DNA of 64,000 nucleotides, taken from positions 3,808,001 to 3,872,000 of the forward strand of contig CBDCTK010000002.1 in NCBI GenBank assembly GCA_965222225.1. The letters are read 5' to 3'. Below are positions 24,431 to 60,480 of this stretch, piece by piece (within the stretch, counting starts at the first letter, position 1; every line of letters begins with the position of its first letter). Under the pieces are notes generated by a model. That model was not told the origin of the DNA. It saw only the letters and a program-made list of their open reading frames with translations, and did no database searches. The translations under genes were made by a program, and so were the position numbers. Source of the stretch: Candidatus Poribacteria bacterium. Lineage in GTDB: Bacteria > Poribacteria > WGA-4E > JAJDTR01.

Positions 24431-24467
24431 GATCAAAGGAACGAATAATGATTGCGATAGAGATCCC
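24431..24467 (+). repeat. 37-nt structured micro-element inserted in a REP
   Basis: GATCAA AG GA AC GAATA AT GA TT GCGATAG AG ATCCC interrupts GTAGGGTGC..CTGCGCACC. Confidence 0.85.
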
Positions 24468-37822: not shown

Positions 37823-37905
37823 GGGACCTCTATCGCAAGGGATTTGCTATGGGATCTCTATCGCATTCGCTAATCGCTCATTTGATCCTATCCGGTCGCT
37901 TGATC
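37823..37905 (-). repeat. Nested micro-elements
   Basis: Complete inner unit at 37851-37887 inside split outer unit(s). Confidence 0.85.
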
Positions 37906-44981: not shown

Positions 44982-45070
44982 AATCAAGCGAGTGAATAGC
45001 GAGTGATCAAGGGAGTGGCAAGCGACCGCGATAGAAATCCCATAGAAAATCCTGTGCGATAGAAGGTCCC
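44982..45070 (+). repeat. Nested micro-elements next to a family-B REP half
   Basis: Inner unit 45005-45041; followed by ACTGTTAGTTTGCG. Confidence 0.85.
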
Positions 45071-50076: not shown

Positions 50077-50286
50077 GAGCCTGTTTGAAAAGTACAGTTT
50101 GTAGGGTGCGCACTGCGCACCAGCCTCTAACAGCCCCGGAGGGGCGGAAGGTGTGTAGAAACACCGAAACCCTGCGTACCTAAGCCCCAGCGGGGCGACA
50201 GGTATATAGCGGGCAAATACACAAACATGAAAAACTGTCTTCAAATGACTAAAAATAGCTTTGCTGCCGACTATTCAAACAGGTTC
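50077..50286. mobile_element. IS5/IS1031-like MITE, copy 3 (inverted relative to copy 2)
   Basis: GAGCCTGTTTGAA...TTCAAACAGGTTC, TAA duplication; internal sequence homologous to 41576-41786. Confidence 0.9.
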
Positions 50287-50439
50287 TAAGATAGCCTTTA
50301 GTTGAACGTGCAAATTGTACTCATTTGGTCAATAATAGGGATTTTGAGATGAACACCTCCGCTCTGCACGCCAAAGCGGCTCGTGCTGATTGATAGATCT
50401 GTGCTTGAGGTATTCATCATTGATGCGGAGGCCAGTGTT

Positions 50440-50753
50440 ATGTCAGGATTGCGCAAAGAGCTGACACAGAAGCTTAATTTAATACCAGACGTTTATGTTA
50501 ATCTATGGAAAGATTCCGATTTGCTCTGTGTGTTCTATAAAGATAAAGAAGTAGCTCACTTCCAAGGTAACAATGAGCTAGATATAAGGCTAACAAGGGC
50601 TGTTATAAACGTGAAGGGCTTTCGCCCCCGAAGAACACAACTAGCCACCTAGGCAGGTCCAAAAATTCAACGTGGATAGTGCAAGGATTCAGGCGTTCTG
50701 CGCATGTGGATGAAATGGTAAGGTTAGTTAGAATAGCTATTAAACAGCTTTGA
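50440..50753 (+). pseudogene. Frameshifted DUF5519-like small protein
   Basis: KEVAHF..NNELDIRLT continues, after a 1-nt frameshift near 50608, as REGLSPP...SHLGRSKNSTWI...LVRIAIKQL*. Confidence 0.65.
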
Positions 50754-51061
50754 CTTAAGGGAGTTATAAGTTGACGGTAGGCTCATTGAGGCATTTCCTT
50801 CGTCAACCCTCGTTTTCTAGACGTTTATTATTCGGCTTGAATCCAGTGAATATCGGGTTTGAGCCGTTTTTTTGCCCATCAAACTAAGGGTTTTTGAACT
50901 TCTAACCCAACAATCCTTGTTGATTCGGGCGTACAATCCGGGTGAAATGGCTATCATCTAATGAAGATTGTTGGTTTCATCCTTAAGCGGTTTTCTGCTA
51001 TAATCTTGCGGGACGGCAGAATCCAACAACCGATCTATAATACGCACCGAGGGGACTGATT

Positions 51062-51925
51062 ATGCAAGACTTTCGGAAACCATTCCCGGCTTTGACGCCC
51101 ACCCAACGTCTGCATCTTGAGGTTTACGGCTACGTTGTCATCGAAAAAACGCTGTCGGAAGAACGAGTCGCCGCACTGCTTGATAAAATCTATGAGATTG
51201 AAACCTTCTTTCGCGAAACCGGAGAGTATCCGTACGGGCTCGTCGCGAATGCGCACAGCAAAACCGATCCGAATTATTTCCGTATCGATAATCTCCCGCA
51301 CATTGCCGAGTGTTTCTTCGAATACTTAACCGATCCGTATTTGGTCGGGCTTGCCCAAGAAATCGTCGGCACGCACGTCCGGCTGTTGCAATCCGATGCC
51401 CATATTATTCGGTATCCGCCGGAAAAGATGGAGCGGCAGAACTACGGATTTCACGGCGGGTGGCACGCCGAATTTGGCCGCACGACGAACGGTCTGTACC
51501 ACTGTCCGTTCATCAAAACGCTCTCCAATTTAACGGACTTGGACGAGGAAGACGGGGGCACGGCTGTTATTGCGGGTAGTCACAAGCTGTGCGGAATCCA
51601 ACGACAGGACATCATCGAGGTAGGGTTGCAAGATCCCGAAAAACTGATCCATCACGTCGTTGCTCCGGCGGGATCGACACTCCTACTTTTTGAATCCCTC
51701 TTGCATTCGGGCGGAATATGCACTTCGGGTAAGGAGCGCGTCTTTATTCTTGGCGGGTACTGGCCCTCAATGTTCCAACCGCATCAAGGGTATGAGCCGA
51801 ATGAGGAATTTTTGAAGACGATTCCCGAGGAGTATCATCCGGTGCTGACCGGCAGCAGGTGTTTCCAATTGGAGAATTTCACACGAGAACTTGGCACGCC
51901 TGCTGAAAAATATCCGTTCGATTAG
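51062..51925 (+). CDS. PhyH-like dioxygenase
   Basis: GGTAVIAGSH, PAGSTLLLFESLLHSG; HGG in place of HxD. Confidence 0.8.
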   Translation: MQDFRKPFPALTPTQRLHLEVYGYVVIEKTLSEERVAALLDKIYEIETFFRETGEYPYGLVANAHSKTDPNYFRIDNLPHIAECFFEYLTDPYLVGLAQEIVGTHVRLLQSDAHIIRYPPEKMERQNYGFHGGWHAEFGRTTNGLYHCPFIKTLSNLTDLDEEDGGTAVIAGSHKLCGIQRQDIIEVGLQDPEKLIHHVVAPAGSTLLLFESLLHSGGICTSGKERVFILGGYWPSMFQPHQGYEPNEEFLKTIPEEYHPVLTGSRCFQLENFTRELGTPAEKYPFD

Positions 51926-51993
51926 CTTGCAAATCATTGTAATAATCTACCGTTCACCGTTTCTAGGAGATTCTAAACGGATTTGGGTTTCAC

Positions 51994-52112
51994 GGGACCT
52001 CTATCACGCGGGATTTACTATCGCTTTCGCTATGGGATTTACTATCGCACTCGCTGTCCGCTCGGTTGATCGTTCGTTTGATCTCAGTCAATCCTATTTC
52101 GGTCGCTTGATT
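51994..52112 (-). repeat. Deepest nest of micro-elements (3-4 levels) in a family-A REP loop
   Basis: Four 5' ends and three 3' ends between TTGGGTTTCAC and CTTCTACCCAACCTAC. Confidence 0.85.
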
Positions 52113-52167
52113 CTTCTACCCAACCTACAGCTATTTAAGTCCTATGAAATACGCTAAAGGATAGACA

Positions 52168-53346
52168 ATGCACACGAAAAATAAACCCAGCAAAATCACA
52201 CTTGGGGCGCTATTGGCGCTCGCCATATTGTCGGGAATACCACTACTGAGTCGTGCGGTGGAAGCCCATCAGCAGAACGTCGAGATTGTGGGCAAAGCCT
52301 CGGTCAACCACGTGCCGAAATTTACGACACCCGGCACAATCAGCGCAACAGGAATTGTCGAAGTGAATGACAATATCGGCATTGGGACGACGGATCCGGA
52401 GAATAAAGTGCACATCTTCGGGAACGTTCTTCAGGTGGAGAGCGGAGGACCCGCGCTATGGTTAAAGGAAAGCGATCAACAGAGCTACCGAGCGGACTAC
52501 GGCTACTGGCGGATTATCGCCGACCACAACGCGCTATTCTTCGAGGTTTGGGAGAACGGGAACGGTAAACCGGGGCATGAGTTCGACATTCAGGATGAGT
52601 TCATGTCCTTTCAGCGAACCCAGACCACCGTACCGTTGGCGAACCATATCATTCAGTGGAATTACGATTTTTACGGTCAAGGGGTGCGAGATCTCAACAT
52701 CGGCGCCAACTGGGCGCAACCAAGCCGGCCCCAGAAGCCCCGCACGTTGTCGCTGATGTCGCTCAATGGCGAAATCAATGAGCTTGTCTACGCCATGCGC
52801 ATTCTTCCGAACAATGCGCGCCCACACGTCATATTCCCCAGTGGTAATATCGGTATCGGCGAAACTCGTCCGGAGAACCTCCTCACCATGAAGCGGTCTT
52901 CCGAGACGGATCCCATCGCGGATGGGTGGACGACATACAGCTCAAGACGATGGAAGACGGACATCAAGCCCCTTGACGGTGCGTTGGACAAAGTTCGGCG
53001 ATTGCGCGGCGTGTCTTTCGACTGGCGCGCCGATGGAAAGCAGGACATCGGGCTGATTGCCGAGGAAGTGGGCGAAGTGGTACCCGAGGTGGTTGTGTAC
53101 GAAGAAAACGGGCATGACGCCAAGTCGGTGGACTATGCGCGTCTGGTTCCCCTGTTGGTGGAGTCTATCAAGGAACAGCAGGAGGTGATTCGGAAGCAGG
53201 ACGCCGCGTTGACCGAGCTCAACGGCAGAATGGCTAAAGTTGAAGCCGCGTTGCGGAAATTTCAGAAAGCGGCAGTTTCGCAGATAGGGGTTGAACAAGG
53301 GGTTGTGCAGCCGCTCGGCAGGTTGCATAGCCGCGAATCAAATTGA
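52168..53346 (+). CDS. Secreted tail-fibre-like protein with intramolecular chaperone auto-processing (peptidase S74) domain
   Basis: Signal peptide; NIGIG..P repeats; SSRRWKTDI, GLIAEEV..VVPEVV, VDYARLVPLLVESIKEQQ. Confidence 0.85.
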   Translation: MHTKNKPSKITLGALLALAILSGIPLLSRAVEAHQQNVEIVGKASVNHVPKFTTPGTISATGIVEVNDNIGIGTTDPENKVHIFGNVLQVESGGPALWLKESDQQSYRADYGYWRIIADHNALFFEVWENGNGKPGHEFDIQDEFMSFQRTQTTVPLANHIIQWNYDFYGQGVRDLNIGANWAQPSRPQKPRTLSLMSLNGEINELVYAMRILPNNARPHVIFPSGNIGIGETRPENLLTMKRSSETDPIADGWTTYSSRRWKTDIKPLDGALDKVRRLRGVSFDWRADGKQDIGLIAEEVGEVVPEVVVYEENGHDAKSVDYARLVPLLVESIKEQQEVIRKQDAALTELNGRMAKVEAALRKFQKAAVSQIGVEQGVVQPLGRLHSRESN

Positions 53347-53364
53347 TTGGCAGGATAAAGCGAG

Positions 53365-54390
53365 ATGAAACAGGCACTGCGTTCCACCGTGTTTTTCCAA
53401 AAGGCGCTCGGATCGTTGTTAGGTGGCTTAATCGGAGACGCCATAGGGACACCGACTGAGAACATGCGTTATCCCGAAATTGAAAAGCAGTTCGGTTGGG
53501 TAGCGGATTTTGAATGCGATGGAACCGACGACACGGTAATGAAATACCTCTTGGCAGAGGCGCTTATCCGCACCGAGGGGTACGCGACCTATGACGATTG
53601 GGCTCAGGTCTGGCTTGACCAATGGGACGACATTTTTGGCGTTAAGGTCAACAAATTTTTCCAGTCAGTGCTGCATACTGCGGTTAAATTACGTCGCCAC
53701 TGTATCCCTAGAATGGCAGCGCTGGGTAACATGCCCAGTTCGAGTTCGGCGATGTGTATCGCACCGGTAGGGATTGTAAATGCTTGCAACCCGCGGCAAG
53801 CAGCGGAGCAAGCCTACAACTTGGCAAGTCTCATCCACATCCACGATGTCTCATTTTGCCAAGATGGCGCGGCTGCGATTGCTGCTGCGGTCGCCTCGGC
53901 ATTTTATCCGGCAGCAAGCGTTGACTCCATTCTTGACGCGGCGCTCAACGCCGTAGTGCCGGTAAGTGGCGAGGAAATGTTGGAGCTTATCACCAAGGCG
54001 CTGACAACAGCAAGTGAGACGAAGGATTACAGGACATTCCGGCAAACTGTATACGCCAATGAGGGGCATTTCTTCCGTCGGATTGCCTGTGACTCGCGGG
54101 AGACGGTTCCCATGACTCTGGCACTTTTCCGCCTCGCTGAAGGGAATGTGGAAAAAATGGTAACCTACGGTGCCAACTTTGGACGCGATGCGGACACGAT
54201 TTCCACTATGGGCGGGGCGATCGCCGGAGCTTATCAGGGCATCAAGGGAATTCGATCGGACTGGGTGCAGAAAGGGCGTCAGTTCACCAGCGTCGATCAG
54301 GATGAACTAGCGGAACGGCTCGTCATCACGGCGCGTGCCAAATTTGATTCGCAGGAGTTGGTGCGACAAGGGTTTACCGCGATCTTGTAA
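53365..54390 (+). CDS. ADP-ribosylglycohydrolase family protein
   Basis: GDAIGTPTE, TDDT, MCIAPVG, GRDADTI..MGGAIAGA. Confidence 0.9.
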   Translation: MKQALRSTVFFQKALGSLLGGLIGDAIGTPTENMRYPEIEKQFGWVADFECDGTDDTVMKYLLAEALIRTEGYATYDDWAQVWLDQWDDIFGVKVNKFFQSVLHTAVKLRRHCIPRMAALGNMPSSSSAMCIAPVGIVNACNPRQAAEQAYNLASLIHIHDVSFCQDGAAAIAAAVASAFYPAASVDSILDAALNAVVPVSGEEMLELITKALTTASETKDYRTFRQTVYANEGHFFRRIACDSRETVPMTLALFRLAEGNVEKMVTYGANFGRDADTISTMGGAIAGAYQGIKGIRSDWVQKGRQFTSVDQDELAERLVITARAKFDSQELVRQGFTAIL

Positions 54391-54437
54391 GGCTTGTGTT
54401 AAGTTGGAAGGACTTACGCAATTCGGTTTGTAGGAGC

Positions 54438-56376: not shown

Positions 56377-56685
56377 CTCGACTTTGTACAAAAATACAAT
56401 TCTGAATTGCCATCTTGTAGGGTGCGCACTGCGCACCAGCCTTTGAAAGCTCCAGCGCGAGATCAAACGAGTGAATAACGAGGGATCAAGCGACTGGATA
56501 GGGAGCGTAGAAGTCCCATAGCAAATCCCGTGCGATAGAGATCTCGACAGGTTGCATAGTATCAGGAACCGCTTGAGACTTTTTCAATGGTCAACCAAAA
56601 AGACCAAATGTCTAAAATCTCCTCCATTTTTCTTCAACGCTTGATTGACACCGTTTGTTATCCCGCTTAAATGTACAAAGTCGAG
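56377..56685. mobile_element. MITE with perfect 14-bp TIR CTCGACTTTGTACA
   Basis: CTCGACTTTGTACA...TGTACAAAGTCGAG; carries a REP and nested micro-elements; related ends at 35826 and 58412. Confidence 0.75.
56461..56544 (+). repeat. Nested micro-elements
   Basis: Two GATCAA starts and three 3' ends. Confidence 0.85.
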
Positions 56686-60409: not shown

Positions 60410-60480
60410 GGATCTCTATCAATCAACTGACCGAACAAGGAAGGCGATAGAAAATCCCACTCCCTATCCATCGTTTGATC
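60410..60480. repeat. Forward micro-element (60421-60458) nested in a reverse one
   Basis: GGATCTCTATC[AATCAA...ATCCC]ACTCCCTATCCATCGTTTGATC. Confidence 0.85.

Follow-up and report, generated by a model that had tools for sequence, protein, structure and literature searches.

A 37/38-nt hairpin repeat that nests within its own copies in a genome of Candidatus Poribacteria

A stack of repeat fragments at positions 51983–52128 of a 64,000-nt window of a Candidatus Poribacteria genome (the window is the whole stretch of DNA that we analyzed, and coordinates refer to it unless stated otherwise) is a real nest of a 37/38-nt hairpin repeat, probably built by strand-specific insertions and later eroded, with some of the resulting composites perhaps copied in their turn. 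A preliminary description of the window, made from its letters, had proposed that a micro-element repeatedly inserts into itself, and this idea is partly supported, across the genome, by 207 nested units, fixed cut positions in their hosts, and 32 inverted inserts.

Results

The repeat unit and its distribution

We searched the genome (G000; 5.70 Mb in 2 contigs) for the unit consensus, GATCAA-N1N2-GA-N3N4-G-RAYA-N4'N3'-GA-N2'N1'-GC-GATAG-N3-4-TCCC, allowing up to 5 substitutions and using the reversed genome as a control. The 2023 raw matches were reduced to 1072 units after duplicate removal, and the reversed genome yielded 0. Contiguous copies of this non-coding unit were either 37 nt (750 copies) or 38 nt (322 copies) long, and the unit core is the most frequent 12-mer in the genome, with 284 copies. 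Units occupy about 1% of the genome and, according to a crude ORF map, about 5% of its non-ORF DNA, a share that makes them relevant to the assembly and annotation of metagenome-derived genomes.

About 25 positions of the unit are near-invariant, and these are accompanied by four stem pairs, free in sequence but complementary, that surround a tandem G.A/A.G. The four variable pairs covary, each with 3–4 standard pair types, in 75 types of N1–N4 combination, and 93.6% of the stem pairs are intact in solo copies. At pair 7-23, CG was counted 290 times, GT 265, GC 228, and AT 222. Wobbles at this pair are one-sided (265 G.T versus 2 T.G and 8 A.C), indicating that the pairing belongs to the GATCAA strand. 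The middle of the stem is filled by GA/GA in 946 of the 1072 copies. Nearest-neighbor DNA folding did not yield a stable hairpin for the unit (energies of −0.8 to −2.6 kcal/mol with z about 0), and folding of the unit, the two-layer nest, and the whole stack on both strands gave no stable structure; the predicted stem finds its support only in covariation, not in folding energy. Each copy carries a mark in its four free but paired bases, so that insertion order, slippage, and conversion become traceable.

In a survey of the phylum, exact pattern matches numbered 329–859 in ten genomes, 114–137 in four, and at most 14 in all others; the element is abundant (at least 114 matches) solely in the 14 genomes of two genera. 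Viral contigs contained 0 exact matches to the 30-nt unit pattern. In G010, a 3.8-Mb genome of genus g2 in the same family, the unit pattern matched exactly only 2 times and the Y1 transposase family not at all; this is a single case.

The nest at 51983–52128

An ORF of 287 aa ending at 51925 and one of 392 aa starting at 52168 enclose the nest. On the minus strand, 51983–52128 reads as a GTAG-type REP hairpin whose loop carries one intact 38-nt unit together with unit fragments, and the segments listed in the preliminary description agree with the sequence letter for letter. The loop lies between the 5′ arm of the REP host hairpin with its GTAG tag (GTAGGTTGGGTAGAAG, 52113–52128) and the 3′ arm (GTGAAACCCAA, 51983–51993). 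The relative G004 has the same REP at the orthologous place, with an uninterrupted, empty loop (GAAG|GTAGCAA). An Rfam search of 51800–52300 returned no match at E values up to 1. The sequence runs that contain this stretch of DNA include sponge metagenomes.

Proceeding inward from the 5′ arm on the minus strand, an HMM parse assigned the left piece of the outermost unit (AATCAAGCGACCGAAATAG, 52094–52112, read 52112–52094) to model positions 1–18/19 with one extra A, and the adjoining left fragment (GATTGACTGA, 52084–52093) to positions 1–10. The left piece of a second-layer host (GATCAAACGAAC, 52072–52083) follows; it covers positions 1–12 and ends at a cut in its own hairpin loop. The innermost complete 38-nt unit (GATCAACCGAGCGGACAGCGAGTGCGATAGTAAATCCC, 52034–52071) has 1 mismatch at constant positions and 3 of 4 stem pairs. 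Beyond it lie the right piece of the second-layer host (ATAGCGAAAGCGATAGTAAATCCC, 52010–52033, positions 15–38), which forms a 24-nt direct repeat with 52034–52057 (91% identity with a spacing of 24 when 52010–52031 is compared with 52034–52055), and the right piece of the outermost unit (GCGTGATAGAGGTCCC, 51994–52009, positions 22–38 in the HMM parse). The tally is three left pieces and two right pieces.

The second-layer host (52010–52083) was cut after nt 12 and lost 2 nt. Removing the inner unit and restoring two bases had been said to rebuild the next unit; this operation does restore the constant positions, with a penalty of 2, but it brings back no more than 1 of the 4 stem pairs. For the outermost layer, the order in which the segments had been listed implied that GCGTGATAGAGGTCCC was the partner of GATTGACTGA, which fails because the N1N2 of GATTGACTGA, CT, does not pair with the GC of GCGTGATAGAGGTCCC. 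It pairs with neither of the remaining right pieces, making GATTGACTGA an orphan whose matching right piece is absent. The N1N2 of the outermost left piece, GC, pairs with the N2'N1' of GCGTGATAGAGGTCCC, also GC, and AATCAAGCGACCGAAATAG and GCGTGATAGAGGTCCC together read as a host that was interrupted after nt 18 and has lost 3 nt. Pairing AATCAAGCGACCGAAATAG with GCGTGATAGAGGTCCC is the better reading of the outermost layer.

Insertion of units into units

Nests were sought throughout the genome by excising complete units in silico and looking for a split unit around each, with a limit of 5 on mismatches plus lost constant positions. Of the 1072 units, 207 lay inside a split host, 24 of those hosts lay in a further host, and 4 lay one layer deeper, which adds up to 235 host units in as many as three layers, 28 of them in the deeper ones. 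Hosts were cut after nt 23 (113), 19 (34), 12 (27), 17 (23), or 18 (16), and these five main positions cover 213 of the 235 hosts, the cut being elsewhere in 22. Mapping the insertion positions within the host, as had been proposed, returned a few fixed sites, after nt 12, 17–19, and 23. Either 2 nt (131 hosts) or 3 nt (74 hosts) were lost in 205 of the 235, with other outcomes in 30; the bases missing from split hosts were GC or GCG, GA, and GG or GA, and a target duplication was present in 3 of 235. Inserts had the same orientation as the host in 203 of 235 cases and were inverted in 32. The junction signature of the nt-23 cuts had 139 matches in G000, 40–55 in each of four genomes of the second genus, and 0 in controls.

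Among the 105 hosts that were cut inside the hairpin, left–right pairing at N1/N2 was retained at 174 of 210 positions, compared with a permuted mean of 130 and maximum of 146 in 2000 permutations. The two arms of the host paired with each other in 67 of 91 cases, and its left arm paired with the arm of the inner unit in 17 of 91. Identical N1–N4 in inner unit and host, by which the preliminary description would have recognized slippage duplication as the origin of nests, occurred in only 1 of 207 nests against 8.0 expected, which argues against that origin. In G005, another species of which 400 kb were analyzed, 22 of 98 units were nested, with the same cut classes and matching types in 0 of 22.

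Inner copies were nearer to the consensus than outer ones, in line with the order of events that the nests had been proposed to record. Mismatches per constant position rose from 2.7% (119/4347) in inner units to 3.6% (145/3985) in first-layer hosts and 4.9% (26/535) in deeper hosts, and the proportion of intact stem pairs fell from 97.7% to 89.0% and 81.5%, respectively (paired Wilcoxon test on inner-versus-host distance to the consensus, P = 2 × 10−4). These results support the view that units serve other units as true targets with fixed insertion positions. The stronger claim that a unit is a preferred target holds as far as position-specific targeting is concerned (235 hosts), but units are filled about as often as REP sites and not more: about 18% of units are hosts by a strict count, compared with 18–50% filled at three REP sites.

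Other composite arrays in the window

The window contains further composite arrays, whose outer bounds are approximate. The array at 37823–37905 (minus strand) consists of a left piece (positions 1–18), a complete unit (37851–37887), an orphan c piece (ATAGCAAATCCC), and a right piece (22–38). On the plus strand, the array at 44982–45070 consists of a left piece (1–23), a complete unit (45005–45041), a right piece (27–38), and an orphan right piece (22–38), and the array at 56461–56545 of a left piece (1–23), an inner unit without CGA, a right piece (27–38), and an extra right piece starting at position 22. The nests that had been reported at 37823, 44982, 48826, and 56461 are genuine composite arrays, but none of the four is perfectly balanced. 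Contigs X11, X1, and X2 carry an additional CGA behind 56507 (plus strand) that completes the GCGATAG of the inner unit; its presence in three other populations indicates that this unit has lost 3 nt in the assembled genome.

At 60421–60458 (plus strand), a unit is inverted inside another, minus-strand unit. Across the genome, the inverted inserts stand after host nt 23 in 27 of 32 cases, and the 22 inverted inserts that are contiguous units are all 38 nt long, with 12 of the 22 ending in TCCT.

Orphan pieces and population variants

The commonest array shapes in the HMM parse were lone units (352), balanced arrays (113, of which 99 were single and 14 double), right-surplus arrays (134), and left-surplus arrays (72). 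Isolated 12-nt left and right matches (426 and 90, respectively) were mostly at chance level and were left out of the evidence. The ends of orphan pieces coincide with those of matched pieces, and these shared start and end positions indicate that orphans are what is left of former nests. In unbalanced arrays, pairing within the complete unit is preserved (74/78 and 67/74), and orphans pair with that unit at chance level. Chimeric units in unbalanced arrays did not exceed chance, a result that neither proves nor disproves slippage. In genus g4, the second genus, we observed stacked 23-nt hairpin pieces before one complete unit and no stacked right pieces (L047 in G012 and L051 in G027); these are both of the 2 arrays that passed the display filter out of 8 loci scanned.

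Contigs from other populations and assemblies cover the nest. Over 51741–52654, contig X2 from a closely related population is 24 nt shorter and has 1 substitution. Within this interval, a 24-nt period is found in just one repeat, the direct repeat inside the nest, and we infer that the 24 bases missing from X2 are one copy of that repeat. Contig X11, from another study, spans 50712–52509 with 40 substitutions in 1798 nt and 0 gaps; being more diverged yet ungapped, it suggests that the longer version probably predates the shorter. Contig X9 (4156 nt), an independent assembly from a run that contained all sampled words, is identical across 50258–54413, with 0 differences. The identity of X9 and the absence of gaps in X11 argue that the nest is not a collapsed-assembly artefact, the second explanation that the preliminary description had set against nesting.

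No unit-sized presence/absence difference appeared among the differences listed for the covered parts of 20 kb in four populations, where contigs break at repeats. Empty/filled pairs between G000 and its nearest relative, G005 (400 kb), were tried and set aside, as the intergenic DNA is too diverged for single layers to be compared. As a record of events, the nests keep a rough age order, as had been proposed, but unbalanced arrays outnumber balanced ones and composites were perhaps copied. The interpretation in the preliminary description is partly supported: nests were built by insertion and retain a rough age order, and slippage and possibly composite copying blur the record.

REP target sites

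REP families occur both empty and filled within the genome, and insertion replaces the bracketed 2–4 nt of the sites given here, which all begin with G. GCACTGC[GC]ACCAGCC was empty 60 times and filled 18 times, with at least 8 unit types; AGGCGGG[GCAT]CTTGCCC was empty and filled 15 times each; AGGGTGC[GCA]CTGCGCA was empty 65 times and filled 14 times; AGGGTGG[GCA]CTGCCCA was empty 48 times and filled 4 times; CAGCGGG[GCG]ACAGGTA was empty 10 times and filled 3 times; and TAGGAGC[GA]TCTCCGA was empty 46 times and filled 3 times. Several sites host at least 6–8 unit types at exactly one place, and others nearly one type: 12 of 14 units at AGGGTGC|..|CTGCGCA and 9 of 9 at AGAGTGG|..|ACAGGTA are of a single type. 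The left flanks of insertion sites vary (..TGC, ..GGG, ..AAC, ..ATA). Units are oriented like the REP tag: GTAG lies at most 16 nt upstream of 344 of the 1072 units, and the mirror case, CTAC downstream, was found for 26 of 1072.

The GTAG-tagged REP families GTAGGGTGCGCA.., GTAGGCGGGG.., GTAGGAGCGATC.., and GTAGGTTGGGTTGA.. are present in tens of copies each. Some REP-plus-unit combinations recur almost unchanged at numerous loci, as though copying had involved the filled REP itself.

Strand orientation and the candidate enzyme

With units masked, 958 top-level units could be scored; the GATCAA strand was locally the C-rich one in 683 of them, and unit orientation was correlated with GC skew (Spearman −0.58, P = 4.5 × 10−6, 53 bins of 100 kb). 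Empty GTAG-REPs have an orientation bias equal to that of the units (C-rich strand, about 70%). The bias of units relative to flanking ORFs is weak (370 versus 296, crude ORF map). Examples in the window are the units at 24431, 36033, and 58469. Along the 5.6-Mb contig C2, GC skew flips sign many times across 100-kb bins and two replichores are absent, a patchiness that could reflect rearrangements or metagenome mis-joins.

The Y1 transposase family (PF01797) has 5 matches in G000 and is present in 155 of the 176 genomes of the phylum. Since the element reaches high copy number in 14 genomes only, the enzyme assignment has no phyletic support, and we rejected the distribution of Y1 transposases as a tracker of the element because the phyletic ranges do not match. 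A Y1/HUH REP-associated transposase is the prime suspect as candidate enzyme.

Discussion

The skew-linked orientation of units, their strict strand choice, and their structure-only conservation point to a DNA-level, replication-linked, single-strand process that acts in trans. In the reading that we consider probable, different units would insert one after another in a strand-specific, structure-directed manner, with inner units younger than outer ones; each insertion exchanges 2–4 target nt starting with G, without target duplication. Direct repeats made by stacking would then be trimmed by replication slippage or conversion, leaving orphan left or right pieces such as those at 51983–52128, and some composites would themselves be copied. 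Most likely the process acts on DNA and is linked to the single strands present at replication forks, and the activity may come in trans from an enzyme that works on REPs as well, for which a Y1/HUH protein is the candidate. We know of no transposition chemistry that replaces 2–4 target nt. The hairpin-forming strand of the unit is mostly the C-rich one, which, if GC skew has its usual meaning, is opposite to the strand that IS608-type elements use.

A bolder form of this reading is that the unit is a 37-nt single-strand substrate, the smallest structure-defined mobile DNA yet seen outside cyanobacteria, which a host hairpin-recognizing enzyme pastes in one orientation into REPs and into the unit itself while exchanging 2–4 bases; we regard it as doubtful. 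If it were true, the stem bases would be a natural barcode, the stacks would be readable records of insertion order, and the 2–4-base exchange would be a chemistry not described for any transposase. The rules themselves, namely fixed cuts, replacement of 2–4 bases from G, strict strand choice, and the link to GC skew, can be tested at the bench.

It is conceivable, with a probability that is low but deserves attention, that only a few founding nests arose by insertion and that host plus insert, or REP plus unit, was then copied whole. Nests cut after nt 12 lend themselves to this explanation: 23 of 27 hosts have AC at N3N4, and 15 of 21 inner units are CTGT or CTGC, types that make up only 36 of the 207 inner units overall, and the same host–inner pairing recurs in 2 of 2 such nests of G005. 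Moreover, the 74-nt composite at 52010–52083 has numerous look-alikes, about 80–89% identical, in G000 and in genomes of the same genus, and two of the REP sites carry a near-single unit type (12/14 and 9/9). These non-random nt-12 combinations mean that a nest may have been copied whole rather than built in place, and if composites were copied whole, most nests would be uninformative on events at their own locus. Wholesale copying is hard to reconcile with the 177 distinct combinations of cut, orientation, host, and inner unit among 207 nests, or with the other REP sites that carry at least 6–8 unit types at one place; the association of host and inner unit within a cut class does not exceed that in shuffles (14 versus a mean of 11.7), and sequence-directed targeting would give an equal association. 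Spread through RNA, in which the unit would be transcribed, folded as RNA, and copied back into DNA so that right orphans are 5′-truncated copies, is unlikely. Such a route has reportedly been proposed for cyanobacterial small dispersed repeats, and it would suit the G.U-type wobbles on one strand only, the strictly strand-specific orientation, and the excess of right-surplus over left-surplus arrays (134 versus 72). However, orientation tracks local GC skew and not the direction of flanking ORFs, and orphan right pieces begin at a few fixed positions instead of scattered truncation points.

Tandem growth of 12–24-nt modules (a, b, and c) by slippage, with no insertion of whole units, would make sense of the internal periodicity of the unit (GATCAA.., GATAG.., GATAG..), of the 24-nt direct repeat in the nest across which X2 is 24 nt shorter, and of how common unbalanced arrays are. 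A counterpoint to insertion is that the nt-23 cuts can also be read as modular arrays, as in the left–left–unit arrays of genus g4. Yet adjacent modules differ in their N1–N4 (the same in 1 of 207 nests, and in 0 of 22 in G005), 32 inserts run opposite to their hosts, the halves of a split hairpin still complement each other on either side of the insert, and in unbalanced arrays the complete unit keeps its own pairing while orphans remain at chance level, leaving this origin very improbable. Slippage fits the erosion of nests and is largely refuted as their origin. Repeat collapse or mis-joining in a long-read metagenome might be suspected in a metagenome-assembled genome with patchy GC skew, but with X9 identical over 50258–54413, X11 spanning the nest ungapped, and the nesting rules holding in nine other genomes of the genus, the probability of an assembly artefact is negligible.

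To our knowledge, self-nesting micro-repeats have been described solely in Nostoc-type cyanobacteria, and the literature matches listed in our search held no description of repeats of this kind in Poribacteria. The small dispersed repeats SDR1–8 of Nostocaceae, reportedly described by Elhai and colleagues in 2008, are said to be 21–27 nt long and to insert in other short repeats; some SDR families reportedly sit inside their own copies in complex nested insertions, and their predicted structure is said to be backed by compensatory changes. Like SDRs, the Poribacteria unit is tiny, dispersed, non-coding, and high in copy number (1072 copies), and it shares with them a covariation-backed stem (four pairs) and self-nesting (235 hosts, three layers). 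In this comparison, which is by description only, the unit is longer (37–38 nt versus 21–27 nt), and it targets GTAG-type REPs and three fixed spots in itself, where 2–4 target nt are replaced. The SDRs of Nostocaceae appear to be its closest known analogue, and the phenomenon seems to resemble the self-nesting repeats of cyanobacteria, with unusually clear rules. That a seemingly unrelated unit behaves alike in Poribacteria living in sponges suggests a more general, unexplained route by which very short DNA is moved. One study found no SDR-like repeats outside Nostocaceae among HIP1-rich cyanobacteria (PMC5861425), and another article (PMC3184786) makes no mention of SDRs. A cyanobacterial origin of the genome was considered and rejected, as PsaA/PsaB are absent and GCGATCGC has only 240 occurrences.

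The unit also invites comparison with GTAG-tagged REPs and REPINs, which are mobilized by RAYT (Y1 HUH) transposases (excerpts of PMC3733652 and PMC3116915). The excerpted text of PMC3733652 further describes GTAG-REP sub-families with alternative complementary stem residues, one of them with an unpaired GA in the stem, and REPs inserted within other palindromes. The unit is likewise a high-copy intergenic hairpin with skew-linked orientation, in a genome with five Y1 gene matches. In contrast to REPs, imperfect palindromes of 20–40 nt with GTAG or a near variant at their foot, it contains GATAG twice and has no GTAG tag before its stem, the tag being that of the surrounding REP; its stem of 2+2 bp around G.A/A.G falls short of a stable stem-loop; and it does not form inverted dimers, occurring as a guest inside REPs. 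The excerpts of PMC3733652 and PMC3116915 contain no account of repeats that nest in themselves at fixed positions and cost the target bases.

Unlike a MITE, the unit has ends (GATCAA../..TCCC) that are not inverted repeats, and its targets lose 2–4 nt and are not duplicated. Elements of the IS200/IS605 type, with their miniature derivatives, are strand-specific and hairpin-dependent, lack terminal inverted repeats and target duplication, are linked to replication forks, and enter on the 3′ side of a constant tetra- or pentanucleotide, with all target bases retained. The unit is equally strand-specific (344 versus 26 for the GTAG tag; 203 of 235 inserts in host orientation), without inverted repeats or duplication, but its left flank is not fixed, it replaces 2–4 nt, and its structured strand is mostly the C-rich one. 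BOX elements of pneumococci consist of A-Bn-C modules whose number varies between copies, and the arrays described here are likewise made of short modules in varying numbers; the difference is that the modules of the unit carry different complementary variable bases, may be inverted, and interrupt one another's hairpins. In contrast to a tandem repeat made by slippage, adjacent copies have the same variable bases in only 1 of 207 nests in G000 and in 0 of 22 in G005.
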